Below are positions 40,401 to 63,609 of a stretch of 64,000 bases of DNA, one piece after another (position 1 is the first letter of the stretch; every line of letters starts with the position of its first letter). The position numbers and the translations under genes are program-made. The notes under the pieces were generated by a model. That model was given only the letters and a program-made list of their open reading frames with translations, was not told the origin of the DNA and did not search any database. Source of the DNA: a candidate division FCPU426 bacterium (lineage in GTDB: Bacteria; Oederibacteriota; Muellerivitia; Muellerivitales; Muellerivitaceae); NCBI GenBank assembly GCA_963771075.1, contig CAVYSE010000003.1:32001-96000 (forward strand), written 5' to 3'.

Positions 40401-43400
40401 GTGTGGGTGTGGGTGTATTGGTCGGGGTCATGGTGGGAGTCGGCGTGTTCGTTGGAGTGGGGGTAGGTGTATGTGTGGGTGTATTGGTGGGTGTATTGGT
40501 CGGAGTCGGAGTCGGCGTATTGGTTGGTGTCATTGTGGGAGTTGGAGTGTTGGTTGGGGTTGGGGTGGGTGTGGGTGTATAGGTGTTCGGGGGTGTCGGC
40601 GTCGGCGTGGGTGTTCGGGTGGGGGTGGGGGTAGGCGTTGGTGTATTGGTCGGGGTAGGTGTAGGAGTGGGTGTATTGGTCGGTGTAGGAGTCGGCGTAT
40701 TGGTCGGCGTCGGTGTAGGAGTTTTGGTCGGGGTCGGAGTAGGAGTGGGAGTATTTGTGGGTGTGGGGGTAGGCGTGTTGGTCGGGGTTGGGGTGGGGGT
40801 CGGAGTGTTAGTAGGGGTAGGAGTGGGAGTAGGAGTTTTAGTTGGTGTCGGGGTAGGAGTCGGTGTATTAGTCGGGGTTGGAGTGGGAGTGGGTGTGTTA
40901 GTTGGGGTAGGTGTAGGCGTCGGGGTGATCGTCGGGGTGGGGGTAGGGGTTGGGGTACGAGTCGGGGTGGGTGTGGGAGTGGGCGTGTTAGTAGGAGTGG
41001 GGGTCGGGGTTGGGGTATTGGTGGGCGTGGGGGTTCGGGTGGGGGTCGGTGTGGGAGTACGGGTAGGGGTTGGTGTCGGAGTAGGGGTAAAGGTGGGATT
41101 ACAAACACCATGCCAAGCAAAAGATTTGAATAGATCGTTCGGGCAACCATGGTCACTGATGCCCACAAGTCCCGATGAATAAGTCGAATCCGTGAAGGTC
41201 GTGCCAAAGGTATAAGAACCCTGGGCGGCGCCAATGGAGACAATGAAGCTGTTCCCACTGACGATCAATTGGATCCATACCGAGGTTGGACACATGGCGC
41301 ACATGGCGCTGTTGGCAGGCAGGTCCACCGTTTGGGTTTTAGTAACGTTTCCGGTACCCGTGCTGGCGGCCCCATACACGTTGAAAGTCAGAGTGCTATC
41401 CGCGTTTGCGCAATTGTCCCCGTCAAATTGAATTTCATACCCCGCGCCCGTGGAGGGGTTCACGTCCCACATGATGCCCCCCTCGTTCGGAGATTGATGC
41501 ACGTTATTTTGGCAATAATTCACCACCATGGTCCCGGGGCCGCTGGCGACCTGGGTGTTCAGCAGCTGGTTGTTTTCATCCAAACACGAGGAATAAACGC
41601 CGCCTACGAACGAAACACCGTTGGTACCTTCACCCCAAGTACCTTGGTCGGGCGGTGCAGCCCCCACCATCCAGCCAGGAGGAGTACCAGGAACCGACTG
41701 ATTGAAAGTCTGACTCACCGAACATTGTTGGGTCGGGTTACATTGGTATTGGGCCACGACCGCCTGTTGCCAATAGCTGCTTTTGGCCGTTAAAGGTGGA
41801 GCCGGGTCTAACCCCCACTCAAAACTCTGACCATTGTTGCTGAAGGCGCTAGTGGGCGGGTAATAATCCCTAGATATTTCATCAGGACCGCTTCCGACTT
41901 TACAATTCAAGGCGCCTGGAGGGCCGCTCCATACGGCTGGAGACCCTTCGTTACCCCCGTATTGTGAACCATTTGACGCCGGTGGATGGTTGGGGCCCGA
42001 TCCGTTGGTTTCGATCTGGTCCATGAATCCATTGGTACTGCCGGTACACTCCTGGGCGCCGCCAAGAGCGGAAAAACGCGTCGAGTAGGAACCGCAACTC
42101 ATGCCCAGGCAGGTCCAATTCAAGTTGGTGTCATAGGGGGGATAACCATATGCTATTTGGCCGTTTTCTTCATAATGCCATGCGCTCTCCCCATCCGAGA
42201 TGGCCACGACATTATTGGAGGTTTCCGCCGGATTTTTGTAAAGCACCATCAGCCCCAATCCCTGGCATGAATCGCCGACGGCGGAGGTGTTAACGGTATT
42301 GGCGCCCGTGTTAAGGGAACCGGGACTAATTCCATAACGAATGCTGTACCAGGTCTGGGTCCATCCGACATAGGAAACCGCACCCGTATTTGTTCCAGTG
42401 CCTGTCCCGTTTCCATTGATCGTGATTTGAGTCGTATTAGGAGCAACATCAGCACCACCGTTGTTGTATTCCACATATAGGAAGGCCGTGACGGCTGTTG
42501 ATCCTGCGGGAAGAGTTACGTTCAAGGGTTGGCCGCACTGGGCAGAGACCATGGTGTAATCTAACCCGGTACCCTGGGCCACTAAACTTTGCTGTTGGGA
42601 ATAGGCGCTCGGTTGGCTCGCGCCGCAATTGGTGAAGGTAATCCCGCTGACCGTCACGGGCTGCATGGGGGCAGGTGTTTGGGTGATGGTGGGGGTCGCG
42701 GTATGGGGTCCGGGAGTGTTGGTGGGCCCGGTCCCATTAAATTGGTTGGTGGTCGTATAGGTCGTTCCGCAGGAACCCACGCTCAAAGGTCCAATGGTTG
42801 TGGATTGCCCACAGGCGTTCGTTACGTCGAAATAAAATGGCCCTCCGGAGTTTCCGTTCAGGCCACCGCTGGTGAGTCCCCAATACTCATCCCCACCCAC
42901 GCCGTTCGCACCCAATGTAAGAGCCGTGTAGGTGCCATTGGAGGTAGAGGAGACACTGACAGACGTGATGGGAATATTCATGTCCAAAAACTGGATGGGA
43001 TCGTAACTTGCGCTGCAACCTGACTTCCATTCATACATGATGTCACCGGAGGGGTCCCCGGTCATCATGCTCAAAGGACACTGGATGAAATGCCAGTCGA
43101 TATTTGCGATACCCGCTGGAGCATTTCCCGTCAATGTGTTCCAGGCAGTGGGGCCCAAATCCAGTTGGTTTGCGGTGGAACAACTCGGACAGTTGTCCAC
43201 CACCATGACCGTGACGGAACCGCCCGTCGTTATATCCAACGCGTCGATGCAAGCCCCGCAGGCCATACCGTTCTGGTAATCAGCGCTGATGATGGCGGCG
43301 TAATAATTCGGATCGTAGGTCCCACTCGGAAAACCGCAATTGCCCGTACCCGGGGATAGGGGCCCGTAGGTAGTCGCGATGGATGTATAGGTGGTGGGTG

Positions 43401-43578
43401 AACTGGAACAAATGACGGCCGAACCAAGAACTTGGGCGTAAGAATACGTTACCGGTAGAATTCCGATAATAAGTGAAGTAATAAATATTTTTGCGCTTCG
43501 ATTGTCGTTAAAATTAACCAACAATCGACGCTCATGAAAACATGATAACGTTTTCAGGAACTTCAGTAACGAATTCAC
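37495..43578 (-). CDS. Giant secreted expansin-like Pro/Thr-stalk protein, copy 2 (several 1-bp deletions in 37850-38490; error or pseudogenisation)
   Basis: Same domain order as 26786-32869; ORF 38467-43578 plus fragments to the KIVVVR stop at 37495. Confidence 0.8.
37499..39128 (-). repeat. Direct repeat A2 (copy of 26790-28427)
   Basis: Near-identical DNA at an offset of about 10.7 kb. Confidence 0.9.
38783..41095 (-). repeat. Coding low-complexity Pro/Thr repeat, copy 2
   Basis: (TPTPTNTP)n-type translation over about 770 aa. Confidence 0.95.
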
Positions 43579-45692: not shown

Positions 45693-46265
45693 CTAGGTCG
45701 GGTCGCTTTTTGAATCGGAAAAATAGGCAAGGAATATCAAAATAATTCCCACCGTAATACAGGAATCGGCGAGATTGAAAATCCACGGGAACTTAACAAT
45801 GATACCCGGACCGGCAAGTTCAAATAACCATGGAAATTTCGTTGTGAAGTATGAATTGACATAATTTAAAATCCACGGAATTTTCAACGTAAAAAAGTGG
45901 ACTCTTTCAAAATCAATAAAATCCACCACTTCCCTTCGAAAAATCCGGTCCGCGAAATTGCCCATGGCCCCGCCCCAAATCAGTCCCAGGGCGAACCTTA
46001 AGACGTTTTTTTCCTTGGGAACAAAGCGTTGATAGGCATAGACCACGAAACCCGCGCCTAGGGTGATCAGGATAAAAAAGGGGATTCGCACCCAAACCCC
46101 CAGATGGGAAAAGAAACCAAAAGCGGCGCCCGGATTATGGATATAGGTCAGGTAAAGCACCCGGGGAACGACAGGAATCGATTGGTCTGGAACGCAAAAG
46201 CGCGACACCAGGAATTTCGAGAGCTGGTCCAGGATCAAGACCCAGAGTGAAACCTTTCGAATCAT
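45693..46265 (-). CDS. lspA: Lipoprotein signal peptidase II, paralog 2 (with insertion)
   Basis: DQLSK, NPGAAFG, GAMGNFADR, VVDFID and FNLADS motifs. Confidence 0.9.
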   Translation of the reverse strand: MIRKVSLWVLILDQLSKFLVSRFCVPDQSIPVVPRVLYLTYIHNPGAAFGFFSHLGVWVRIPFFILITLGAGFVVYAYQRFVPKEKNVLRFALGLIWGGAMGNFADRIFRREVVDFIDFERVHFFTLKIPWILNYVNSYFTTKFPWLFELAGPGIIVKFPWIFNLADSCITVGIILIFLAYFSDSKSDPT

Positions 46266-46744
46266 CCCGGTTCCGCCGCTTTCTCCTTTTGGCCCCTTAA
46301 ATAAACCGTAAGGAGGATCAACAAACCGATCAGGACGCAGGAATCGGCGATATTAAATACATACCACTGGAAATCTTCCCAACGTAAATCGATGAAATCA
46401 ATCACCCTGCCGTAAAGAAGCCGGTCTAAGAAGTTGCCCAACACCCCCCCCAGCACCAGGCCCAAACCCACCCGGGGAAGGTTCTTGTCGGGAGGTAAAA
46501 AATGTTGATAGGTATAAACGATGGCGAATGCGGCCAAGGTCGCGGCCACGAAAAAAGGGATCCTCACAATCGGCTCCATTTGGGCCATAAAACCGAAAGC
46601 CGCGCCGGGATTCTGCTTGTAGGTCAAAAAAACCGTGTTGAACAAAAGGGGTATCGACTCGTTCAATTGAAGCTGATGCAAAACCAGGAACTTGCTTGTT
46701 TGATCAAGCGCCAAGACAAGCATGGCGATACCCAGGAGGATCAT
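46262..46744 (-). CDS. lspA: Lipoprotein signal peptidase II, paralog 1
   Basis: DQTSK, NPGAAFG, GNFLDR, VIDFID and FNIADS motifs; ATGA overlap with ileS stop. Confidence 0.92.
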   Translation of the reverse strand: MILLGIAMLVLALDQTSKFLVLHQLQLNESIPLLFNTVFLTYKQNPGAAFGFMAQMEPIVRIPFFVAATLAAFAIVYTYQHFLPPDKNLPRVGLGLVLGGVLGNFLDRLLYGRVIDFIDLRWEDFQWYVFNIADSCVLIGLLILLTVYLRGQKEKAAEPG

Positions 46745-49593
46745 GCCTTCCCACCTCCCCGGGTGGTTGGCCATTCGCGTACCCGAGGTCCGCAACGATG
46801 GCAAATATCCGAAGTTACTTTGTCCATCTGCTCAACCGGGTAATAGTTCCAACAGCGTGCGCACTTTTGTCCGTTAAATTTGCGGGAAACAGTTTTAATT
46901 TTCAATTCCGAATCTTCCGCTTCCTGTGCATCCACCGGCGGGTTCCCATCCTTAAGGTTCACGGAGGAAACGAGGAAGTAATAACGCAATTGGTCCTGGT
47001 GCTTTAACAAGGATTTCCCGACTTTTTCATTGCCTACATAAAGATCGACTTCCGCTTCCAAGGAGCTTCCGATGACCTTCGCTTGCCGAAGGCCTTCCAG
47101 GGATTTCGAAACGGCCCTTTTCACCGCCAGAATCCATTCCCATTCCTGCTCAAAAACCGGGTCCACCTGGGAGTCCACCGAAGACCACCGGGAATCAAAC
47201 ACGCTTTTTTCCTTGTTTACGCGAAACTTTTCCGGCAAGGCCTGCCAAATTTCCTCCGCGGTGAAGGAAAGGATGGGCGCCACAGCGACGACAAAATGTT
47301 TCAAAATGTCGTAAAGAACAGTCTGGGAGGCCCGGCGGTCCTTGGAATCGGTCGCGTAAGTATAGAGCCGATCCTTCAGGATATCGAAATACCCCGCGCT
47401 CAAGTCCACGGAGAAAAACCGGTCCACCTGGTGGAATACCCTCGTGAACTGATATTGCCGGTAGGCATCCTCAATCCCCGCCAGCGTTTTTCGGGCTTCC
47501 ATCCATGCCCATCGGTCTAGGGCGGTCAATTCCTTTTCACCCACTCGGTGAAGGACCGGATCAAAATCCGAGAGATTTCCCAGGATGAACCGGAAAGTGT
47601 TGCGGATACGGCGGTAGGCTTCCGACATGCGGGTCAACATCACCTCACTGATGGATACATCTTCGGTGTAATCCTCCGAAGCCACCCAAAGACGCAAAAT
47701 GTCCGCGCCGTATTTTTTCACCATTTCTGTCGGATCGATCACGTTGCCCGCACTCTTGTGCATTGCCTTGCCCTGGGCGTCCAAAACCCAGCCATGGGTT
47801 AAGACTCCGGTAAAGGGTGCTTTCCCTTTCAGGGCGACCCCGGTCCAAAGGGCATGTTGAAACCATCCCCGGTGCTGGTCGCTTCCTTCTAAATATAGGA
47901 CATATCTATTTTCTTGCGGGCCGACAGCCTTCAACTCATCCCTTTGGTCCAAGACGGCAAAGTGAGAATTCCCGGATTCGAACCAAACATCCAAAATGTC
48001 TTCTTCTTTAATAAATTGAGTGGACCCACAATGACACTTATGGTCTGGGGGTAGAAGATCCGACGCCTGATGTTGGAACCATCCGTCGATTCCCTCTTTT
48101 TGAACCAGCGAGACAACGTTTTCAAGCACCGTTGGATTTCCCACCACCTCGCCGCAAGACTGGCAATAAATGGCCGTAATGGGCACACCCCAAGCCCTTT
48201 GCCTGGAAATGCACCAGTCCGTTCTCCCCTCGACCATGTTTCGCATGCGGTCTTTGCCCCAGGTAGGTATCCATTGCACATTCTCGATTTCCGCTAGGCA
48301 TCTTTTCCGCAAGTCTTTGTTGTCCAATTCGATAAACCATTGGGCGGTGGCCCTGAAAATGATGGGATTTTTCGACCGCCAACAATGGGGATAGCTGTGT
48401 TTCAGTTTCTCAACGGAAAGCAGTAGCCCCAATTCCTTGAGTTTCTCGACGATTTTCGGGTTGGCGTCCCAAACCGAAACGCCCTCCATTTCCTTGAAAC
48501 GGGAGTCATAGCGCCCCGCCTCATCCACCGGCGAGTAAACTTCCAAATGATATTGAAGGCCGATCTCGTAGTCTTCCCGTCCATGTCCGGGGGCGGTGTG
48601 AACCAAACCCGTTCCCGTGTCGGCGGTGACGTGGGGCCCGACCATGACCAAAGAATTCTTGTCGAGAAAAGGGTGCCGTGCCAGAGCTCCGTCCAGGGCC
48701 CGCCCCTTCACCTCATCCACGATCTTGATGTGGGAAGCGTTCCAACCGCAAGCTGCGGCCACTTGGGACAGCAAGACCTTGGCTAGGATGTAATTGTTGT
48801 CCCCAACCTGGACCGTCACATAGTCAAAATCCGGGTGGACGGAAATGCCCAGGTTCGCGGGCAAAGTCCATGGGGTAGTCGTCCATATAAGAAAGAAAAG
48901 GTTTTTCCGGGGAGTATTGGGGAAAACACCGCTGGGTAGGTCCTTGACCGGGAAAGCCACTGTGACCGACAGGGACTCATGGTCGGCGTATTCCACCTCG
49001 GCTTCCGCCAGGGCTGATTTGCAAACTGGACACCAATGGATCGGCCTCAGGCGCCGGGTGACATAGCCTTCCGAAATCAATTGGGTTAGGGCCCGAACCA
49101 GGGAAAGCTCATAAGCGGGGTCCATGGTCGAATAGGGTTTGTCAAAATCGCCCAATATCCCTAATCGTTTAAACTCCTCCTTTTGGCGTGCCAGGAATTT
49201 ATCGGCGTATTTCCGGCATTCCTTGCGGATCTCAATTTTTGACATCGTCTTGGCCCTGGAACCTAATTGCTCGACCACCTTGTGCTCAATGGGCATGCCA
49301 TGGCAGTCCCAACCCGGCACATAAGGCGTTTGTTCTCCCCGAAGGGCGTGAAACTTGACAATGATATCTTTAAGAATCTTGTTGAGGGCATGACCCATGT
49401 GGATATCCCCATTTGCGAAAGGAGGGCCATCATGAAGTATGTATTGGGTGGTGGAACCGGCGGACTGGGTTCGGCCTTGATAAAAACCAAAATTTTCCCA
49501 CAGTTTCAAGCGTTCGGGTTCGGTCTGGGGAAGGTTAGCCTTCATGGGAAAGTCAGTCTGGGTGATGTTGAGGGTGTGTTTGAAATCGGCCAT
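46741..49593 (-). CDS. ileS: Isoleucine-tRNA ligase (type 1)
   Basis: HDGPPFANG, HMGH, GWDCHG, WTTTPWT, WCISRQR, EGSDQHRGWF, AMHKS and C-terminal CARC/CHRC zinc finger. Confidence 0.97.
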   Translation of the reverse strand: MADFKHTLNITQTDFPMKANLPQTEPERLKLWENFGFYQGRTQSAGSTTQYILHDGPPFANGDIHMGHALNKILKDIIVKFHALRGEQTPYVPGWDCHGMPIEHKVVEQLGSRAKTMSKIEIRKECRKYADKFLARQKEEFKRLGILGDFDKPYSTMDPAYELSLVRALTQLISEGYVTRRLRPIHWCPVCKSALAEAEVEYADHESLSVTVAFPVKDLPSGVFPNTPRKNLFFLIWTTTPWTLPANLGISVHPDFDYVTVQVGDNNYILAKVLLSQVAAACGWNASHIKIVDEVKGRALDGALARHPFLDKNSLVMVGPHVTADTGTGLVHTAPGHGREDYEIGLQYHLEVYSPVDEAGRYDSRFKEMEGVSVWDANPKIVEKLKELGLLLSVEKLKHSYPHCWRSKNPIIFRATAQWFIELDNKDLRKRCLAEIENVQWIPTWGKDRMRNMVEGRTDWCISRQRAWGVPITAIYCQSCGEVVGNPTVLENVVSLVQKEGIDGWFQHQASDLLPPDHKCHCGSTQFIKEEDILDVWFESGNSHFAVLDQRDELKAVGPQENRYVLYLEGSDQHRGWFQHALWTGVALKGKAPFTGVLTHGWVLDAQGKAMHKSAGNVIDPTEMVKKYGADILRLWVASEDYTEDVSISEVMLTRMSEAYRRIRNTFRFILGNLSDFDPVLHRVGEKELTALDRWAWMEARKTLAGIEDAYRQYQFTRVFHQVDRFFSVDLSAGYFDILKDRLYTYATDSKDRRASQTVLYDILKHFVVAVAPILSFTAEEIWQALPEKFRVNKEKSVFDSRWSSVDSQVDPVFEQEWEWILAVKRAVSKSLEGLRQAKVIGSSLEAEVDLYVGNEKVGKSLLKHQDQLRYYFLVSSVNLKDGNPPVDAQEAEDSELKIKTVSRKFNGQKCARCWNYYPVEQMDKVTSDICHRCGPRVREWPTTRGGGKA

Positions 49594-49719: not shown

Positions 49720-51000
49720 TTACGAACGGGATTCGCGAGGGACTCGCAGGATACTGTTGTCGCCTCCCTGGCCGTCATGGATCCTCTCTGAGCTCTTCGG
49801 ATCGGAAATCCACTCCACATCCTCCAACACAAACTTGTAATGGTAGGTTCCCGGGTTCAAGGACATGATGAAACGGAATGAACCGTCAGGCTGGCGTACC
49901 ATGAGGTCTTCATCCTTGTCCCAATTGTTGAAATCCCCGACCAGTGCCACGCGGTTCACCGGCCGGTAAGGATGGTAGGTAATAGTCACGTTGCTCGGCG
50001 GGCTATAAGACTCGACCCGGTTACGCCCCTTGGATTTGGCCGAGTAAAGGCTTTCGTCGGCGGTCTTGATCAGGGATTCCTCGTTGGAAGCGTCCACAGG
50101 AAAGGTCGCCACCCCGGCCGAAAGGGTAACCCGGCCTAATGGCTGGGATTCCATGTGGTCAAAAGGGGTCGTCTCGATCCGGCTACGGATCCGTTCCGCC
50201 AATTCGGAGGCCCTTTTGCGGCTCGTCTCCGGCAGGATCAGCACAAATTCCTCGCCCCCGTACCGGGCCACCACATCCACCTCCCGGGCCTCGTCCTCCA
50301 AAATCTGCGCCACTTTTTTCAACACCTCGTTGCCGGCCGGATGGCCGTTGGCGTCGTTATAGATCTTGAAATGATCCAGGTCAAAGATAACCAGGGAGAG
50401 TAGACGGTGATATCTGTCGGCGCGGACCCTCTCTTCCTTCAGCCTTTCCAGGAAGTACCCGAAGTTATAGAGCCCGGTCAAACGATCCGTAATGGCCATT
50501 TGTCTTGTCCGTTCATAGAGCAAGGCGTACTCGATGGCCAGAACGTCTTGGCCCAGGCTCTCCGAATCCCCACCCTGCCGCATGGCCCCATCAAAGAAAA
50601 CCAAGCCCAAACGGTTCAAGAGCAGGGTGACCTGCTCCAGCTTTTCGACCGTTCCCGACTCGGCGGGGCTTTCCCCCGCCGATACCTCGCTGGACAATTC
50701 CCTCAGGCTGTCCCGCAAAAGGAATAGTAAAAAAACCATGTCCGTCCCGGATAAACGGTTCACCGCCTGCAAGGTCTTGAGGTTTTGAACGATAGGTTTA
50801 AGGACCGCGTCAACGGCTTGTTCGGCGCTACCCTTTTTATCGACGATAGCGACCAGGTTGCGAAGAAGATCCCGTACCGCCCCAAAAACGGGAGTCTCGG
50901 TTCCCATCAAAGACAAACGCCCCGCCAAAGCCTCCCGGGTCATCTGCCAGTGGGCCCGAAGGCTTTCCATCCGGGTATCCAAAAATAGATTTAAGTTCAT
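49720..51000 (-). CDS. Diguanylate cyclase: RsbRD_N-like helical domain, GGEEF domain, C-terminal CBM48/AMPK-beta-like glycogen-binding domain
   Basis: DRLTGLYN, DLDHFKIYND, RxxD I-site (REVD), RYGGEEF; tail VALVGDFNNW...GTYHYKFV...WISDP...GGDNSIL. Confidence 0.9.
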   Translation of the reverse strand: MNLNLFLDTRMESLRAHWQMTREALAGRLSLMGTETPVFGAVRDLLRNLVAIVDKKGSAEQAVDAVLKPIVQNLKTLQAVNRLSGTDMVFLLFLLRDSLRELSSEVSAGESPAESGTVEKLEQVTLLLNRLGLVFFDGAMRQGGDSESLGQDVLAIEYALLYERTRQMAITDRLTGLYNFGYFLERLKEERVRADRYHRLLSLVIFDLDHFKIYNDANGHPAGNEVLKKVAQILEDEAREVDVVARYGGEEFVLILPETSRKRASELAERIRSRIETTPFDHMESQPLGRVTLSAGVATFPVDASNEESLIKTADESLYSAKSKGRNRVESYSPPSNVTITYHPYRPVNRVALVGDFNNWDKDEDLMVRQPDGSFRFIMSLNPGTYHYKFVLEDVEWISDPKSSERIHDGQGGDNSILRVPRESRS

Positions 51001-51058
51001 GGGTTCGTTCTTCCGTTTCCTATGGGAAATTTAAATGGGATGGAGGTCAAGGGCGGGG

Positions 51059-52576
51059 TCAGGGCTTCATCAAGGATTCGTATAAAACCATGTATTTTTT
51101 GGCGGTCGAATCCCAGGAAAAATCCTGCCGCATGTCCCTTTCCACCAGATCCGCCCAAAGCTTGGACTGGTGGTAGGCCTCCAAGGCCCGCCGTAGGGCG
51201 CCTAAGAACTCATCCCGCCGGGTATTCTCAAAGACAAAGCCCGTGCCCCGCAGGCCATCGGGCGAGAGATTCTCCACCGTGTCCGAAAGGCCGCCCGTTT
51301 TCCGGACCACCGGCACAGTGCCGTATTTCATGGCGATGATCTGGCCCGACCCGGAAGGTTCGAACCGGGAGGGCATGAGAAAAAGATCGCTACCGGCGAA
51401 AATGAGCTTGGCCAGCCGGTGGTCGTATTTCAGGTTCACGGCGAGTTTCTTCGGGTACCGGCCATGCCATTCCTGTAGCAAGTCGTGGTAACGGCTCTCG
51501 CCGGTTCCCATTACGACGAATTGGGCGTCCATTTCCACGAGATCTCCCATTGTTTCCGCGATCAAATCAAACCCTTTCAGGTCATTGAGGCGGGTGAGGA
51601 GGCTTACCACCGGAGTGTGGGGCTTGAACTCAAGGTCCTGTTCCTTCGTCAGTTTGCGTTTGGACTCGACCTTATGGCTGTGGTTTTTCATGGTGTATTG
51701 CGCTGGGATTTCCTTGTCGGAGGCCGGGTTCCATTCCGCGTAATCGACCCCGCTGAGGATCCCATGCAAGTCCATGGATCGGGTTTGAATTACCCCTTGC
51801 AGGCCGTGCCCCTCCTCATCCGTTTGAATCTGCTTTGCGTAGGTGGGAGAAACAGTGCTCACGGCCTCGGAATACACGAGACCGGCCTTGAGATAATTCA
51901 CTTGGTCGTAAAATTCCAGGCGTTCCGCGCGGAACTCCTCCCAGGGAAGCCCGGTCATGGGCAAAACATATTTCGGAAACAATCCCTGGTAAGCCATGTT
52001 ATGAACGCTAAAAAGTGTTTTAATCGGGGTATAAATCGGTTTCTCCCGGTAAAGGGTTTTCAAATAAGCCGCCACCAAGCTGGTCTGCCAATCGTTCAAA
52101 TGGATGATATGCGGAATCCAATTGACTGCCTTGAGCATTTCCAGGACCGCCCTGGAAAAGAAGGCAAACCGTTCGGCGTTGTCGAGATAATCGCCATCCG
52201 GGGTTCCGTAGAAACCGTCCCGGTCAAAATAACGGTCGTTCTTGATGAAATAAGCCATGCCGTGGGACTCGGTGAAATGGGTCGACAGGATATCGGCCTG
52301 CATATCCCCCATTCCCATGGGCACCGGAAGTCCCCGGGCCTCCAACTTGAAATCATACTTTTCATAAGAGACGGCGCGATAAAAAGGGAGAACGACTCTT
52401 ACATCGCAGCCCAGCTTTAATAGGGCGGCGGGGAGAAAATGGGAAACATCGGCCAATCCCCCGGTTTTCATGAAAGGGGACGCCTCGGAGCTGACAAAAA
52501 GCACCCTCATTTGGGAGGAACTGGTGGTTTTCGCCGAATGGGAAAAGGACTGTTGGATTCGATCAAAAATCGACAT
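51059..52576 (-). CDS. glgA: Glycogen synthase (GT5, ADP-glucose)
   Basis: KTGGLADV, DNAERF, HLNDWQT, HNMAYQG, TVSPTYA, MPSRFEP and TGGLSDTV motifs. Confidence 0.95.
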   Translation of the reverse strand: MSIFDRIQQSFSHSAKTTSSSQMRVLFVSSEASPFMKTGGLADVSHFLPAALLKLGCDVRVVLPFYRAVSYEKYDFKLEARGLPVPMGMGDMQADILSTHFTESHGMAYFIKNDRYFDRDGFYGTPDGDYLDNAERFAFFSRAVLEMLKAVNWIPHIIHLNDWQTSLVAAYLKTLYREKPIYTPIKTLFSVHNMAYQGLFPKYVLPMTGLPWEEFRAERLEFYDQVNYLKAGLVYSEAVSTVSPTYAKQIQTDEEGHGLQGVIQTRSMDLHGILSGVDYAEWNPASDKEIPAQYTMKNHSHKVESKRKLTKEQDLEFKPHTPVVSLLTRLNDLKGFDLIAETMGDLVEMDAQFVVMGTGESRYHDLLQEWHGRYPKKLAVNLKYDHRLAKLIFAGSDLFLMPSRFEPSGSGQIIAMKYGTVPVVRKTGGLSDTVENLSPDGLRGTGFVFENTRRDEFLGALRRALEAYHQSKLWADLVERDMRQDFSWDSTAKKYMVLYESLMKP

Positions 52577-52641
52577 AGACGCCTTTATTCGCTTTAAATT
52601 AAACGGAATTTATCAGGGATTGTGGCCGTCAAATTTTTGGC

Positions 52642-52670
52642 ATTATAGGTTTCGCGGCAGGGAGGGTCAA
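52642..52670 (-). promoter_or_regulatory. Near-consensus sigma70 promoter upstream of glgA
   Basis: TTGACC-17 bp-TATAAT on the minus strand. Confidence 0.75.
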
Positions 52671-52844: not shown

Positions 52845-53999
52845 CTATTTTTTAGGCACACCGGATACAAGGGACGCGTACAAGTCTCTGGTCTTCTCGG
52901 CGATGGAAGTCCAGCTGAAATATTTCTCCACCCTTTTGCGCCCGTTTTCCCCGTAACGTTGGGCCATGGCCGGATCTTTTAACAGCTTCTTAACGGCCTC
53001 TGCGATCTCGGTAGGTTTGCCAGGCGTGACCAGATACCCCGTCTCATCCGGCACCACCACTTCCAGGATGCCCCCCACGGCCGAAGCGACAACCGGGGTT
53101 CGGCAGGCCATGGCTTCAAGGTTGATGATTCCGAAAGGCTCGTAGATCGAGGGGCAAATGAAAACCCGGGCGGAGCTGTACAATTGGATGACTTCCTCTT
53201 CCTTGAGCATCTTGCGGATCCAAAGGATGTTCTTCTTCGTGCTGGCTTTTTTCGTCATCAGTTCCTCATATTCCTTGGTATCCCCTCCGCCAGCGCATAA
53301 CACGACCTGGCAGGGAATCTGATCCGCGGCGTCGATCAAGTGCTCGATTCCCTTTTGCGGGGTCGTGCGGCCGACATAAAGAACGAAATCATCCTGGATC
53401 CCGTATTCTTTCTTCAAGGAATCGCTCAAGGACGTCTTCACGTATTTATTCAGGTCGATCCCATTATGGATGATCGCGACCTTGTCTTCCGGAACCTTGA
53501 AATGTTTGAGGATATCGGCCTTCATGTCCTTGGAAACGGCCACGATCTTGTCGGCCGATTCGATGGATATCCGCTCGATCCAGGAACTCAACTGGTATCC
53601 CCCCGCCCCCAATTGCTGGTCTTTCCAGGGACGCAGCGGCTCCAGGCTGTGGCAGGTGAGGACGAAGGGCACCTGATAAAGAATCTTGGCCAGGAGACCG
53701 GCGAAGTGGGCATACCAGGTATGGGTGTGGATCACATCCGAATCAAAATCGTCGGAGAGGGACGCCATATTGACCGACATCGTTTCCAATACGGACGAGA
53801 ATTTCTGCTTGTCTTTGAGGTATTCCCAGGGTTTGTAACCCTTGGCGCGGCGGCGGGCCTCCCGCTCGTCCTGTTCGCCGAAACATCGGACATCCACATC
53901 CATTATTTTCATCAACTCTTGGGATAGATATTTGATGTGGATGCCCGCCCCTCCGTAAATGTGCGGCGGATATTCCTTGGTAACCAGGGTAACTTTCAT
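52845..53999 (-). CDS. glgM: GlgM-type alpha-maltose-1-phosphate synthase (GT4, Corynebacterium-family 'glgA')
   Basis: TKEYPPHIYGGAG, HTHTWY, HSLEPLRPWK, PSIYEPFGIINLEAMAC motifs; directly downstream of glgE. Confidence 0.85.
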   Translation of the reverse strand: MKVTLVTKEYPPHIYGGAGIHIKYLSQELMKIMDVDVRCFGEQDEREARRRAKGYKPWEYLKDKQKFSSVLETMSVNMASLSDDFDSDVIHTHTWYAHFAGLLAKILYQVPFVLTCHSLEPLRPWKDQQLGAGGYQLSSWIERISIESADKIVAVSKDMKADILKHFKVPEDKVAIIHNGIDLNKYVKTSLSDSLKKEYGIQDDFVLYVGRTTPQKGIEHLIDAADQIPCQVVLCAGGGDTKEYEELMTKKASTKKNILWIRKMLKEEEVIQLYSSARVFICPSIYEPFGIINLEAMACRTPVVASAVGGILEVVVPDETGYLVTPGKPTEIAEAVKKLLKDPAMAQRYGENGRKRVEKYFSWTSIAEKTRDLYASLVSGVPKK

Positions 54000-54038: not shown

Positions 54039-56027
54039 TTAATGCCCAGGGGTGCGGATATAAGCGTCGATGATGGACTCCCATCCGTGTTTTTGAGCTA
54101 GGCCGTCGATCACGAAGTGGAATGCCTCTTCGTAGTTCACTCCCGAGTAAATCTTTGGGGCGATGACTTCCTGAAAGAGGTGGGACATCTGGCGGCGCGC
54201 CAGGATGTCGCTCTTTTTGCCAGCCTGTTCCTGGAATTCGAAAAACAACTTTCCTTTTTCTTCCGCCATGGGCGAGGCCAGATTTCTAGGAACCTTCGCC
54301 CTTCCCGGCCGGAGGCGGAAGATCTGAACGGGTTCGCGCGTCGGGTCCAGCAGCACGTAATTCTCTCGGCCCTTCCAGGCGAAAGTTTTTTCGGTGATTA
54401 ATTCCTCGGCCAGGTAGGTCTCGTCCGATCCCAGCCCCAAATTCTCGACCGGAACAGTAACACGGGAAGTTTGGGTTCCGTTCAAGTTGAAGTTGACAGT
54501 GATCAGTAGGTGGTTTTCGCCCTTGGGATCGGATTTCAAAAATGCAAGGACATGTTCGTTGGTGGAAGGGCAGAATTGGATATTGTCGAAATAACGCAAG
54601 GCGAGGTTTTCCTTGCGGATGCGGTTGACCGCGCCGATATAGTCCTTGATATGTCCCGGGCGGTCCCAATCCCAAACCTTATATTCATACTTTTCGGAAT
54701 GGATGTAGGTTTCCGCATTCGGGTTGGCCGCGTTCTCGCACAGTTCATAGGTGCTGTAGATGCCGTAGGCGGGCGCCAGGGTGGCGGCGAGCCCCAGGCG
54801 CATCTTGAAGGCGGGCCGCCCTTCCCTTTGAAGGATCTCGGGCAGAATATCCGGGGTGTTGCAGAAGAAATTCATCCTGAGAAAATCCTTCACGTAGCTG
54901 GACGTCAGCCGGCCCATATACTCGATCATCTCGTTCTTCGTGTTGCGCCAAGTGAAATAGTTGTAGGACTGGGAAAAACCCAGCTTGGCCAGCAGTTCCA
55001 ATCGCTCATAGTAGGTGAAGGCCTCCGAGAGGAAGAACAGGTCCGGGTTTTCTTTTTTCAGTTCCGGGATGACCCAGTGCCAGAAGTCGTCCGGTTTGGT
55101 GTGGGGATTGTCGATCCGGAAGATGGTCACGCCCTGTTGAATCCAGAAGGAAAAAATATTCTTGAGTTCCTTCCACATCGCGTCCTTATCCGGGGGATAA
55201 AAGTTTAGGAAAACCGTGTCTTCATATTTCTTCGGCGGGTTCTCGGCGTATTGGATGCTCCCATCGGGATTGTGGAAAAACCAGTCTGGATGTTCCTTGA
55301 GCCAGGGATGGTCGTAGGAACAGGTGAGGGCCATGTCCATCGCGATGCGGATCCCCATCTTGTCGGCTTTCTTGACGAATTTCCTGAAATCCTCCAGCGT
55401 TCCCAACTCGGGGTGGATCGCGGTGTGTCCCCCCGTCTCGTCCCCTATGGACCAAACGCAACCCGGGTCTCCCGGCCCGGCCCAAAGGGTGTTATTGGGT
55501 CCCTTGCGATTGGTATGACCAATGGGGTGGATAGGCGCCAGGTAGATCACGTCAAAACCCATGCCCTTGATCTCACCCAAACGTTCCTCACAGTCCTTGA
55601 AAGTGCCGCTCTTACCCGGAACCCTTCCTTGGGATCGGGGGAAAAGCTCATACCAGGCGCCGAAGCGGGCGACCTCGGGCTCCACGAAGACCTCCAAAAT
55701 ATGTTCGTACCCTAACGGTTTGCCGGCATGGCCCGAAGAGGCCTCGACGGTGTATTCGTAAATGCCGGTTTTGGGGAACCGGACGGATCCCCGGTACCTT
55801 TTAAGTTTTCCGGGCATATTCAAGGCTTCCAGTGGTTTTGAGTCCCACTTTTTTTCGCCTTTTTTCCTGTAAAGAAGTAAAACCTCGGAGGGGTTCCCAT
55901 CCAATCCGGCCTCCACCTGAAATTCCAGGTTCAATTCCGTTTTGACAGGGTATTTTCCACCGTCCACTTCGGGGTAAATGTGCCGAAAGGCTAAAGGCCC
56001 GGAACTTTTTGGTTTCTTCATGTTCAA
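54039..56027 (-). CDS. glgE: Alpha-1,4-glucan:maltose-1-phosphate maltosyltransferase
   Basis: WYELFPRS, RKGPNN, YAENPPKKYED, FRIDNPHTKP, LSEAF and NTPDILP motifs. Confidence 0.93.
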   Translation of the reverse strand: MNMKKPKSSGPLAFRHIYPEVDGGKYPVKTELNLEFQVEAGLDGNPSEVLLLYRKKGEKKWDSKPLEALNMPGKLKRYRGSVRFPKTGIYEYTVEASSGHAGKPLGYEHILEVFVEPEVARFGAWYELFPRSQGRVPGKSGTFKDCEERLGEIKGMGFDVIYLAPIHPIGHTNRKGPNNTLWAGPGDPGCVWSIGDETGGHTAIHPELGTLEDFRKFVKKADKMGIRIAMDMALTCSYDHPWLKEHPDWFFHNPDGSIQYAENPPKKYEDTVFLNFYPPDKDAMWKELKNIFSFWIQQGVTIFRIDNPHTKPDDFWHWVIPELKKENPDLFFLSEAFTYYERLELLAKLGFSQSYNYFTWRNTKNEMIEYMGRLTSSYVKDFLRMNFFCNTPDILPEILQREGRPAFKMRLGLAATLAPAYGIYSTYELCENAANPNAETYIHSEKYEYKVWDWDRPGHIKDYIGAVNRIRKENLALRYFDNIQFCPSTNEHVLAFLKSDPKGENHLLITVNFNLNGTQTSRVTVPVENLGLGSDETYLAEELITEKTFAWKGRENYVLLDPTREPVQIFRLRPGRAKVPRNLASPMAEEKGKLFFEFQEQAGKKSDILARRQMSHLFQEVIAPKIYSGVNYEEAFHFVIDGLAQKHGWESIIDAYIRTPGH

Positions 56028-57583: not shown

Positions 57584-57934
57584 CTAAAATTCGCCGACAG
57601 CATCCTGCTCGGTCTTGAGGATATGAAAGAGGCCCGGTAATTCCAACAGGTCGAAAACCTTGTAAATGTCGGGACTGACGTTGGTGATCTTGATGTCCCC
57701 CCTGTTTTTCCGGACATCCTTGATGACACTCATCAAAACGCCGAAACCGGCGCTGGAAATATAGGTCAGTTTCTTCATGTTCAACACGACCTTGTACTGT
57801 TTCTTCTTGAACAAATCTTGGAGGCACGTCTCAAAATTACCGACCGTGTTGATGTCCAAAACTCCCTCTATATCCACCACAGTCACGGCGGTGTTGGACA
57901 TGGCGGAGTGCGTGGATAGGACCAAACTTTCCAT
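57584..57934 (-). CDS. STAS-domain anti-sigma factor antagonist
   Basis: GVLD, LTYISSAGFGVL and FDLLEL motifs; GGAGG RBS. Confidence 0.9.
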   Translation of the reverse strand: MESLVLSTHSAMSNTAVTVVDIEGVLDINTVGNFETCLQDLFKKKQYKVVLNMKKLTYISSAGFGVLMSVIKDVRKNRGDIKITNVSPDIYKVFDLLELPGLFHILKTEQDAVGEF

Positions 57935-60036: not shown

Positions 60037-63000
60037 TTAACCGACCTTGGATTCCTCGGGCCGGTTTTCCTTGAACTTGGTCGAAAGGATCTTGGAGACG
60101 CCCGACTCCTGCATGGTCACCCCGTACATGATGTCCCCCGTTTCCATGCTGACCTTGTTGTGGGTGATCATGATGAACTGCGTTCGCTTGCTGAATTCCT
60201 TGAGCAGGTGGGTGAACCGGCCCACGTTGACGTCGTCCAGCGGCGCGTCGATCTCGTCCAAGCAGGCAGAAGGGGCTGGGTTTGACCATGAAAAGCGCGA
60301 ACAGAAGCGCGATAGCGGTCAGGGCCTTTTCCCCCCCGGATAGCAGGAAAATGGATTGCAGCCTTTTGCCCGGGGGGACGGGCCACGATCTCAATGCCCG
60401 ATTCCAGCACATCCCCCTCGTCGATCAGGATCAACTCCGCCCGTCCCCCCTCGAAAAGGCGCTGGAAGATGTCCTTGAAATTTTCCTGGACGGTGGCGAA
60501 GGTGGATGTGAAAAGTTCCTTGGAGGTCAGGTTGATCTTGTTGATGGCTTTCTGCAGATCGTCCTTGGCCTTGAGCAGGTCCTCCTGCTGTTCGCGTGAG
60601 GAACTTGTAGCGCTGGGAAAGCTCGTCATATTCCTCCATGGCGACCATGTTCACGAGCCCTAACCGCTCGATCTTGGCGCGCAATTCGATGCACTCGGTC
60701 TCGGCCAAGGCCGCGTCAAAATCCTCCTGGGGGGTGACGGGAGGGTTCTCAATATCGACCTTATATTCCACCTGGAGCTTTTCCTCGTAATTACGGATCT
60801 CCACGTTGATCTGGGCTTCCTGCACCGCCAGGCCGTGCATTTCTTTCTGGATCTCCTCCAGCTTAATCCTGGATTTTTTCACCCTCTCGATGCGTTCCTC
60901 AGTTTCGGCGGCGACGGTTTCACGTTTGGCCATGACCGCATGGACCTTGTCATCCGCCTCTTTTTTGGAGTGGGTGAGGCCACCGGCCTTTTGCTCCAGG
61001 TCGGTCAGATCCAGCGATAACTGGCGGTCTTGGCTCTCCAACTGCTGGTTTTCGTCCTTTTTCAGGGCGACCGAATGGGTCAATTGGTCCTGTTCGGTCT
61101 GGTAACGGTCGGCTTCCTCCTGGGCACGAACGGCCATTTCGTCCATGGCCGCCAGTTCCAATTCCGCCTGGACTACCAACCGGGACAATTCCTCCCGCCG
61201 TCCCTGCAGGTTTTGCAGGGATTTGCGCGCCTCGGAGATTTCTTCCTGGGTCAGGTGGTGGGCTTGTTCGCTTTGGGCCAGGAGCACCGAAAGCTGGTCC
61301 ACCCGGTCCTTATCCGCCTGCCAATGGGCTTCCAGGTCTTGGCGTTCTTTCGCCAGCCCCGTTCGTTCCCCCTCCAGTCGGGCCTTGGTTTCCCCGATAC
61401 GGTGAAGTTCCTTTTCAGTCTCGGCCAAGAGGATCTTCAACTGTTGGTTGCGGCCCTCGGAGGCCAAAAGGGCGTCCTCGGTTTCTTTGCGGACCCTTTT
61501 GGAATCGATGAGCTTTTGCTCAGCCGTTTGGATATCCCCCTCCAGTCCCTTGAGGCGGTCGCTCAACTCGGTCATTTCCCGGTGGCGGCCCAAAAGCGAG
61601 AAGCCCGAAACCGCGGACCCGGCTTTCCAGGAACCCTTGGGCCCCTGGCGGTCGCCGTCCCGGGTCACGAAACGCCGGGTGGGATGCTGTTCGCTCAAAC
61701 GTCCCGCCGCGGACCAATCCTCCACCAGGTGCCCATCCCCCAATAAAAACCGGACCATGGGTTCCATCTCCGGTTTGAATTGGACCGATTCGGGCAGGGG
61801 ACCGACATGGCCCTCCCCCGGAGATAGGGCGACGGCTCCGGCGGGGACGAGGTCTTCCAGCACCAACAAGGAAACCTTACCCTGGCCTTCGGCTTTCAAG
61901 AATTCCACGACCTTGGTGGCGGCAACCCGGTTTTGGACGACGAGGGATTGCAGCTGGCTGCCTAACAGGTTTTCCACCGCCCCTTCCATGGATTGGTCCA
62001 CGGAGAGGAGGTCGGCCACCACACCCAGCACTTCCTGCCACATCAGGGGTTCGTTTTGCTTGGCCTGGAGGACCGCCTTCACGCCCGCGTCATAACCCGT
62101 GAGTTTGTCCTGGAGTTCCTGGAGCACGCCGTAACGGGACCTTACCTCGGAACATTGGTTGTTCAACTGGCGCAAGGATGAGTTGATCTCCTCCAATTGG
62201 GTTTCCTGTTGGGAGAGCGAGGTTTGGTAGCCCATGATCGTCTCGACGGTCTGGATCTCCTCGGCTTGGGCATTTGTCTTCGCGAGATGAAATTCTCCCA
62301 GCATGCGGTCGGAATCCGCCACTCCCGTTTCCACGCGGTTCAATTGGTCCACCAGGTCCTGGATGCGCTTGGAGGTTTCGGCGTCCTGGGAACGGAGCGA
62401 GTCCAGCTCGGCGCGCATTTGGGCGGCCTTGGTCACCAGGTCCACCGCGGCGCTATTCTTGCTTTCCAGGTCCTGGTTTTTGGCGCTCAGATCGCCGTCC
62501 AGGGCGGATAATTTCTCGACCAGTCCGCGTTTTTGGGATTCCCTCTCGGCCTTTTGGCTTTCCTTCGAGGCCACCGCCTGGCGCCGTTCGGCGATCCAGG
62601 TCTTGAGGTTCTCGATACGGGCCAGGGCCTCGGCCACCTGCTGTTGATTGCGGGCTCGTTGGTCGGCCAGCAGATCCTTGTGGCGCTTGGTACCCTCCAT
62701 GCGGCCCTGGGTCAACTCCACCTCGCTGTGGACCTTGTAAGCCTGTTCCCTGGTTTGGGCGAGTTCTTCCTCGATCTCGGCCAGGCGGGAACGCTGCTGT
62801 TTTTCATCCTGTTCCAGGTTGTGGGTCTCGGCCTGGGCCCCCTCCATTTTTCCCCGGACCTGGTTCGTCTTGTGCTCCAGGTCCTTCAATTTGTCCTTGA
62901 GCTTGACGGTCTTGTCCAAATGTAAAAGGATCTGGAGCTTGCCCAGCTCTTCCTTGAACTTTCGGTACTTCTCGGCCTGCTTGGCCTGCCGCTCCAGGGT

Positions 63001-63609
63001 GGAGATCTGACGCTTGATCTCGGCGATGATGTCCGCCACGCGCACAAGGTTTTGCTCGGTGGCGTCCAGTTTCCGCAGGGCCTCGACCTTGCGGGCCTTG
63101 TAGCGGGTGATTCCCGCGGCTTCCTCGAAGAGGGCCCGGCGCTCAAGGGGTTTGGAGGTGACGATCTGGTCCATCTTGCCCTGCTCCATGATGGAGTAGG
63201 CGCCGACCCCCAGGCCCGTTCCCATGAACAATTCCCTGACGTCCTTCAAGCGGGCGATGGCCTTGTTGATCAGGTATTCGGATTCCCCGGAACGGTAGAC
63301 CCGGCGGGTGATGGAGATCTCGTTGAATTCCAGGGGCAGGGCCTTGTCGTCGTTGGAAAGGGTCAGGGTCACTTCCGCCATGCTGGCGGGTTTGCGCTGG
63401 TCCGTGCCGTTGAAAATGACGTCGGTCATTTCGGAAGCCCTCAACCCCTTGGCCGATTGTTCCCCCATCACCCATCGGATGCTGTCCGACACGTTGGTTT
63501 TTCCGCAGCCGTTGGGTCCCACCACCGCCGTGATGCCCGGCTCCAGGATCAATTCGGTCTTATCGGCGAAGGATTTGAAGCCGTGGAGTTCAAGTTTTTT
63601 TAGGAACAA
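60037..63609 (-). CDS. smc: Chromosome segregation protein SMC (three 1-bp insertions near 60596, 60374 and 60261)
   Basis: [17 protein letters not shown]-loop, coiled coils and hinge; LSGGEK and DEIDAPLD lie in shifted frames. Confidence 0.95.

Follow-up and report, generated by a model that had tools for sequence, protein, structure and literature searches.

We analysed a 64,000-nt stretch of DNA (hereafter the window; positions 32,001 to 96,000 of contig CAVYSE010000003.1, assembly GCA_963771075.1) from a candidate division FCPU426 bacterium of the family Muellerivitaceae, phylum Oederibacteriota. Behind the glycogen synthase gene glgA it encodes a fusion protein that, judged by profiles, alignments and predicted fold, is a GGDEF-family enzyme joined to an AMPK-type glycogen-binding module. 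We propose that this protein docks on glycogen, makes a cyclic dinucleotide there and likely adjusts its output to the glycogen store, a reading to which we assign a probability of roughly 0.55. The identity of the product is less certain, since the residue predicted to read the base is Asn and not Asp in all readable fusions. Coordinates of all features are given in Table 1.

Domain architecture of the fusion protein

The original prediction, made from the DNA letters and their open reading frames (ORFs), described a 426-residue ORF with a GGEEF site, an RxxD motif and a distinct C-terminal domain. This ORF is present, and the VGDFNNW, GTYHYKF, WISDP and GGDNS motifs ascribed to the C-terminal domain were all found in its translation. 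The AlphaFold2 model of the protein has a mean predicted local distance difference test score of 88.4 and a predicted template modelling score of 0.65. Among the Pfam families named in that prediction, GGDEF and AMPK1_CBM were recognized in the fusion protein, CBM_48 stayed below its cut-off, and RsbRD_N gave no match. Residue conservation was assessed in an alignment of 70 proteins, namely the fusion protein and 69 of the 120 matches listed in the protein database search (47-80% identity). The linker that leads from the GGDEF domain to the module comprises about five residues, and P334 is invariant in the alignment.

Glycogen-binding module

The AMPK1_CBM profile (PF16561) matches residues 348-422 with 42 bits against a cut-off of 26.8, and CBM_48 (PF02922) scores 17.2 bits, under its cut-off of 22.4. 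The C-terminal 90 residues align with rat AMPK beta1 (1z0n; E 5.8e-5). The modelled module superposes on 4aef (Z 12.2, root-mean-square deviation (rmsd) 2.4, 89 residues aligned), 3nme (Z 11.5) and 2qlv (Z 11.3, rmsd 2.2, 85 residues aligned). The claim that the motifs are typical of CBM48/AMPK-beta domains is thus upheld by profile, sequence and fold. No other AMPK1_CBM match occurs in the host genome.

In the printed alignment, W360, K389, W397, G412 and N415 correspond to W100, K126, W133, G147 and N150 of rat beta1, and each of them is invariant in 70/70 aligned homologues. Mutation of W100, K126, W133, L146 or T148 weakens glycogen binding and abolishes the inhibition of AMPK by glycogen according to excerpts of PMC2642990, with which passages of PMC6274970 are consistent as regards the AMPK glycogen contacts. 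Three of these five named contacts, both tryptophans among them, are retained in the fusion protein. By this conservation, the module is predicted, with high confidence, to bind alpha-glucan. Modules of this kind also occur in other arrangements: many of the proteins P0199-P0347 carry 3-20 AMPK1_CBM-like modules in tandem, some together with TPR repeats.

Catalytic domain and base-reading residue

The Pfam GGDEF profile (PF00990) spans residues 169-328 (E 1.6e-46; 158.5 bits against a cut-off of 23.8), and the protein scores 176.8 bits with TIGR00254 (cut-off 37.4). The fold of the domain superposes on the GGDEF domain of WspR with Z 27.2 and rmsd 1.4 over 162 aligned residues. GGEEF occupies residues 248-252, and RxxD (REVD) lies at residues 239-242, five residues N-terminal of it. 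Residues D207, D209, K212, N215, R246, E250 and E251 are invariant in 70/70 aligned homologues. RxxD is present in 68/70 of them and in 115 of the 120 database matches listed, and GG[DE]E in 119 of these 120 and in 74/74 proteins of a distant lineage. The predicted enzyme is, on this evidence, very likely to be catalytically active.

The site had been called intact, which holds for the GGEEF motif and the metal ligands and fails at the base-reading position. Residue 224 is Asn, and its aligned partner is Asp in WspR and Ser348 in the Hypr enzyme GacA (6d9m). Asn was found at this position in 119 of the 120 listed fusion matches (one was unreadable), in 74/74 proteins of the distant lineage, in 23/24 genome and metagenome fusion loci outside the family (one was not read by the pattern) and in 7/7 further proteins. 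In contrast, 77/79 non-fusion GGDEF domains have Asp, and the residue in the other ten readable GGDEF proteins of the host genome is Asp in nine and Ser in one. Excerpts of PMC6456294 describe the position as reading the Watson-Crick face of the base, with Asp driving GTP specificity, and state that Ser/Thr (Hypr) enzymes carry GGDE[F/Y] only. Membership in the Hypr (GacA-type) group was therefore rejected for the fusion protein, which has Asn and GGEEF instead of this combination. On its sequence, the protein is a GGDEF-family cyclase that is neither a canonical diguanylate cyclase nor Hypr. A 330-residue GGDEF protein of the host (G000:C6:149177-150169, minus strand) combines Ser at the base-reading position with GGDEF, a Hypr signature, and is a candidate cyclic GMP-AMP (cGAMP) synthase.

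The protein had been predicted to make cyclic dimeric GMP (c-di-GMP). The assignment to the GGDEF family stands, and this product is not assured because the guanine-reading Asp is replaced by Asn in all readable fusions. We infer that the Asn side chain could read either guanine or adenine, since its amide both donates and accepts a hydrogen bond and its length equals that of Asp. The sequences give c-di-GMP as sole product an even chance; a mixture of c-di-GMP with 3',3'-cGAMP or cyclic dimeric AMP (c-di-AMP) appears somewhat less probable, and a protein without any product rather improbable. The GEMM-I riboswitch (RF01051), which in its cGAMP type would be a reader of such a product, was matched in 0/5 genomes, yet also in 0/14 control genomes. 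Our literature search, whose coverage left out most subscription papers, found no report on Asn at the GGDEF base-reading position, and PMC13725321 contains nothing about this position.

N-terminal domain and stalk helix

In the AlphaFold2 model, residues 1-141 form five or six helices, which are followed by the stalk helix. RsbRD_N (PF14361) matches 20/23 aligned members at E<=1, the best with 1.4e-7, and leaves the fusion protein itself unmatched. The fold match with the longest aligned stretch was the stressosome domain 3zta (Z 7.9 and rmsd 4.0 over 115 residues), among many helical ties, and the Atlas score for RsbRD_N (0.81) is a lead only. Foldseek returned nothing for this domain at E<=0.001, an absence that leaves a globin fold possible, and a literature search on stressosome/ASK found nothing relevant. 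A haem-globin oxygen sensor of the DosC type was ruled out, as no His column within residues 1-169 exceeds 26/70. The N-terminal part probably has a non-haem globin-like structure and acts in input and dimerization. Stalk residues Y158, Y162 and E163 are invariant in 70/70, and the stalk likely forms a coiled-coil dimer contact.

A lone STAS protein encoded nearby (57584-57934) is unusually conserved, with 82-94% identity at the family loci, 67% in genome G071 and 81% in G025, a genome of a sister family. The RsbRD_N-like domain may have this protein as its partner, but the STAS protein also occurs where the fusion is absent.

Linkage to glgA

The fusion gene starts 58 bp past the end of glgA (51059), as originally described, and no terminator-like site was listed in this gap. 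The TTGACC-17-TATAAT promoter reported ahead of glgA is present as well. The scanned region contains two promoter-type sites against 4.6 expected, and a single site is not above chance. Among 28 family relatives, which are kin and thus not independent, 18 have a perfect TTGACA-16-TATAAT no more than 260 nt ahead of glgA, 4 have an 11/12 match and 6 a weaker one. The perfect form occurs at only 6 sites in the whole 4.39-Mb host genome. Co-transcription of glgA and the fusion gene is predicted to be likely from this arrangement. The RNA data were too little to speak to transcription, an operon or a habitat: one run contained 6% of the words, and one 249-nt contig equals 49679-49927 exactly, with no match to any other part of this locus.

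Directly upstream placement of glgA was observed in 26/28 family relatives with the fusion, and in the other two both genes lie at contig ends. In G025, a genome of a sister family, the gene block is the same except that ileS comes right after glgA and the fusion is missing; the fusion was therefore gained or lost exactly behind glgA.

Distribution of the fusion

The GGDEF-CBM junction is present in 37/99 genomes of the phylum, namely the host, 28/30 family relatives and 8/8 genomes of three other families. The two family relatives that lack the fusion (63% and 85% complete) also lack glgA. The expected co-location with glg genes holds within the family and breaks down outside it (0/8 same-phylum genomes; 0/16 loci of two other groups). 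Homologues unlinked to glg genes had been named in the original prediction as evidence that would refute it, and this part of the result goes some way in that direction. All eight fusion-bearing genomes of the phylum outside the family carry glgA elsewhere, and the neighbours of the fusion there are a HAD hydrolase, a methyltransferase and similar genes. In families f3 and f14 (L042, L043, L044, L277, L278, L280), a Cof-type HAD hydrolase gene directly follows the fusion, mostly with a methyltransferase gene after it.

With 10 candidates scored per genome, the junction matched 10/401 genomes of the class to which L052, a Polyangiaceae record, belongs, 9 of them across the whole query, and 9/401 genomes in the phylum of L112 (Planctomycetota), 7 of them across the whole query. 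The metagenome locus L131 has a phosphorylase gene ~4 kb upstream of the fusion, the only glg link found outside the family. Broader scans were dominated by other proteins. The whole-protein scan of the genome collection was filled by ordinary GGDEF proteins, with 3/80 loci full-length. The metagenome scan returned mostly lone modules, and 3/80 loci spanned the junction region, one of them (L142) being GlgB-like rather than GGDEF. In the search of representatives, where tandem-module proteins dominate, 10 of the 150 listed covered most of the query in one stretch.

The GGDEF-CBM unit is combined with at least three different N-termini, one of which has an EAL domain. Protein P0245 (691 aa) combines an EAL and a GGDEF domain with the glycogen-binding module in a single polypeptide and has Asn at the base-reading position. 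Another lineage (L131:7233-8438 and P0122-P0194) has a different N-terminal domain and has lost the W133 equivalent, but Asn, GGDEF and RxxD are retained. When 43 GGDEF domains were placed in a tree, the 29 fusion rows fell together on the same side of one branch (93/90, not starred); the tree pattern dropped the fusion rows L313, L314, L325 and P0308 and most intended outgroups, leaving 14 non-fusion rows. By this tree, a single origin of the fusion is likely.

Glycogen metabolism and GlgA erosion in the host

The host genome encodes glgA, glgM, glgE, a GlgB-like gene, phosphorylase and GH57 genes, and glgA is found in 89/99 genomes of the phylum. The c-di-GMP network of the host comprises 15 GGDEF, 21 PilZ, 4 EAL and 1 HD-GYP-type matches. 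In the same genome, alpha-amylase-family matches are confined to GlgE and the GlgB-like gene, and no GlgX was seen. The parallel with c-di-GMP-activated GlgX of Streptomyces, drawn in the original prediction, therefore lacks its target here. Likewise, PF01087, the mark of a GalT-type route to ADP-glucose, was not found in the host genome (one of the five genomes searched had a match). Neither this gene nor a canonical glgC was found that could supply GlgA and GlgM with ADP-glucose, and these enzymes may use UDP-glucose instead.

Host GlgA scores 533 bits with TIGR02095 (cut-off 328) and retains KTGG and E406. Of 141 well-conserved columns, 13 are changed in it, with N275S, Q333L, C408S and L410S among the changes; the 19 aligned family relatives have 0-5 such changes each, except G003 with 9. 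Its motif thus reads EPSGS in place of EPCGL, and the donor-site Asn is also changed. The change from EPC to EPS occurs in 5/6 genomes with a close glgE type, from two families, and the sixth, G018, has no KTGGL match. Where glgE is of a distant type, EPC is intact in 4/4 of the genomes examined, as it is in 45/45 readable GlgA proteins from genomes without a glgE match. N275S is common to the host and G033, and the eroded gene stays full-length. Selection on the eroded gene may have relaxed, or its role may have changed and perhaps become non-catalytic. The printed motifs of the cyclase are intact in relatives with altered GlgA and a close glgE type (G001, G003, G018). Since the cyclase motifs persist where the GlgA active site is eroded, the module probably binds the polymer and not GlgA.

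Proposed mechanism and alternative explanations

In the mechanism that we favour, the module would dock the enzyme onto the glycogen of the cell. A glycogen particle is rich in chain ends, and binding to them would crowd or orient two GGDEF domains and so change the output. Two GGDEF domains must face each other for catalysis. The output would likely track the store because binding to the particle would crowd or orient domains that must pair, and a cyclic dinucleotide would be made on glycogen at a rate that tracks the amount or shape of the store. The N-terminal helical domain would serve as a second, exchangeable input and as a dimer contact. We consider it about even whether glycogen binding alters the output in this way or purely anchors the enzyme.

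Several observations weigh against glycogen sensing. Two of the five AMPK contacts named in PMC2642990 are changed, L146 to Q411 and T148 to G413; the first position is L or M in 53/70 homologues and the second is G in 70/70. The residue equivalent to W133 is missing from one lineage (0/74 matched the motif) and is Tyr in some others. By analogy with the Asp-to-Ser change, which inactivated 4/5 canonical enzymes (excerpts of PMC6456294), Asn224 might impair catalysis. Canonical glgC was found in 0/99 phylum genomes by a model that matched 8/14 controls, the best host score being 119 bits against a cut-off of 425. The fusion is not glg-linked in 8/8 same-phylum genomes of other families, with glgA on another contig or, in the single-contig genome G029, 674 kb away. 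None of GlgA, GlgM, GlgE, GlgB, phosphorylase or GH57 was found near the 16 full-range loci of the L052 class and the L112 phylum, several of which lie on short contigs. Within the family, the glgA neighbourhood belongs to a longer inherited block (smc-ftsY-STAS-nucleotidase-glgA-fusion-ileS-lspA-lgt-rluD), and the 26 glgA-adjacent cases come close to one event because the whole block from smc to rluD is conserved.

The module may be an anchor rather than a sensor, merely placing the enzyme while the N-terminal domain is the true input. The messenger would then have glycogen enzymes as its local targets, and the signal would control glycogen instead of being controlled by it. The exchange of N-terminal domains among lineages around a constant GGDEF-CBM unit fits such an arrangement, as do the activation of Streptomyces GlgX by c-di-GMP (excerpts of PMC9530166) and the action of c-di-AMP-bound SbtB on a cyanobacterial glycogen-synthesis enzyme (excerpts of PMC10118264). 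However, no GlgX-type gene was seen in the host, the very short conserved linker suggests coupled domains, and the 21 PilZ matches are possible distant readers. We regard simple anchoring as unlikely. It is still less probable that the neighbourhood is incidental, the module being a leftover or a protein-contact domain and the adjacency to glgA an inherited accident in a housekeeping block. The lack of glg linkage outside the family, the position of glgA itself among housekeeping genes across the phylum, the variable W133 equivalent and the abundance of AMPK1_CBM-like modules (43,663 representatives at E<=0.001) point that way. Against it stand the carbohydrate-contact residues, which are invariant while adjacent positions vary, the dedicated promoter before glgA, the lack of a terminator-like site between glgA and the fusion gene, and the gain or loss of the gene precisely at this place.

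Finally, the protein could be a weak or dead receptor, in which Asn224 spoils substrate binding and which binds c-di-GMP at RxxD as an adaptor on glycogen; the near-complete retention of RxxD agrees with this. Dead GGDEF domains usually drift at catalytic sites, whereas here the seven catalytic-domain residues listed above are invariant and GG[DE]E is complete even in the distant lineage. The loss of activity in most canonical enzymes tested with Asp-to-Ser favours a receptor, but Asn equals Asp in length and, by our own reasoning from excerpts of PMC6456294, fits the GGEEF spacing rule. We consider such a receptor quite improbable. Glycogen-docked synthesis with an output that likely follows the store is the reading that we retain. 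A bolder version, in which the GGDEF-CBM48 clade would form a third, Asn-type specificity class and, under a glycogen switch, produce 3',3'-cGAMP or c-di-AMP, either by itself or together with c-di-GMP, is tentative and in our estimate doubtful.

Other features of the locus

The 5'-nucleotidase-like protein encoded at 56057-57580 matches Pfam in its C-terminal domain only, and throughout the order its gene keeps its place upstream of glgA. Its metal motifs (GDENG, DSGN, GEGD) look degenerate against those that we take to be typical. Between ileS and the lgt-like gene, 45693-46804 holds two tandem, family-conserved genes that are presumably lspA-like by their motifs. The smc-like frame (60168-63609) seems split by a frame change near 60400-60630 into two overlapping ORFs; relatives have a single ORF of ~1190 aa, and the split is possibly an assembly error. 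A 1703-aa ORF at 38467-43578 begins like a signal peptide and contains a Pro-Thr repeat tract of great length. GC skew in the window has its two strongest peaks at 28-30 kb and 38-42 kb.

Table 1. Features of the fusion gene and its surroundings (coordinates are positions in the window)
Feature	Coordinates	Strand	Basis or remark
Fusion gene, 426 aa, helical domain-GGDEF-CBM48	49720..51000	minus	ORF listing, Pfam profiles, AlphaFold2 model
AMPK-beta/CBM48-type module, residues 337-422	49735..49992	minus	profile, rat beta1 alignment, fold
GGDEF domain, residues 169-332 (D207/D209, K212, N215, R246, GGEEF, RxxD)	50005..50496	minus	profiles, conservation, fold
Asn224 codon, residue facing Watson-Crick edge of base	50329..50331	minus	alignments to 6d9m (GacA) and WspR
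Stalk helix, residues 150-168, leading into GGDEF	50497..50553	minus	helix in model; conservation
N-terminal all-helical domain, residues 1-141, probably RsbRD_N-like, no conserved His	50578..51000	minus	profile, fold, His columns
glgA, glycogen synthase family	51059..52576	minus	TIGR02095
Sigma-70-type promoter TTGACC-17-TATAAT	52642..52670	minus	kept upstream of glgA in family
glgM-type gene (TIGR02149, 'glgA_Coryne')	52845..53999	minus	upstream of glgA; inserted in 4/31 family genomes
glgE (GlgE_dom_N_S, Alpha-amylase, GLGE_C)	54039..56027	minus	inserted along with glgM
Eroded-GlgA loci L021, L292, L293, L273, L300

Novelty and implications

The first description named no characterized example of this architecture, and our literature search, subject to the coverage stated above, likewise gave no description of a GGDEF-CBM48/AMPK1_CBM fusion. 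Excerpts of PMC6851124 mention CBM48 and GGDEF for separate proteins, and the first 300,000 characters of PMC11046441 contain no mention of c-di-GMP, diguanylate or CBM48. Public databases already record GGDEF and AMPK1_CBM domains together. GGDEF signalling itself is known; a glycogen module as its input is apparently undescribed, and the putative Asn active-site class is new to the literature searched.

The links between messenger and glycogen that we found described run from the messenger to a glycogen enzyme (excerpts of PMC9530166 and PMC10118264), and the fusion appears built for the reverse direction, or for making the messenger on the granule. If glycogen controls its output, bacteria would have a direct reader of stored carbon, as animals have in AMPK. 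If the Asn-type class were real, such AMPK-like sensing would use a messenger of its own, apart from the other GGDEF proteins of the cell, in at least three bacterial groups. What Asn does at the base-reading position would also bear on how each such 'diguanylate cyclase' is annotated. The protein is small, soluble, well predicted and easily expressed, so that both glycogen sensing and the role of Asn are directly testable.

Comparison with known systems

For the RsbR-type non-haem globin domains (PF14361; 3zta), the likeness consists of the weak profile match in 20/23 aligned members and a helical fold match over 115 residues that ties with generic helical bundles, and the N-terminal domain differs from them in not being joined to STAS. 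Canonical diguanylate cyclases (WspR, PleD, DgcR) share with the fusion the GGDEF fold, GGEEF, the metal ligands, RxxD, an N-terminal input and a stalk helix, whereas the fusion clade has Asn for the base-reading Asp and a glycogen-binding module at its C-terminus. Hypr GacA of Geobacter (6d9m) likewise departs from Asp at the base-choice position (N224 corresponds to Ser348), but there, according to excerpts of PMC6456294, Ser/Thr goes with GGDE[F/Y], and here Asn with GGEEF.

A link between a cyclic dinucleotide and glycogen is shared with Streptomyces GlgX (excerpts of PMC9530166). In Streptomyces a glycogen enzyme is the target of the messenger, whereas here the enzyme predicted to make the messenger carries the glycogen-binding part. 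The closest likeness is to the glycogen-binding domain of AMPK/SNF1 beta (1z0n, 1z0m, 2qlv), termed a 'glycogen sensor' in excerpts of PMC2642990, which is the same module by profile, sequence and fold. In both systems, the module is joined to a signalling enzyme and not to a glucan-processing one, and the equivalents of W100, K126, W133, G147 and N150 are kept. Unlike AMPK/SNF1, the fusion is bacterial, consists of a single chain, has changed equivalents of L146 and T148, and is predicted to signal by a cyclic dinucleotide instead of phosphorylation.

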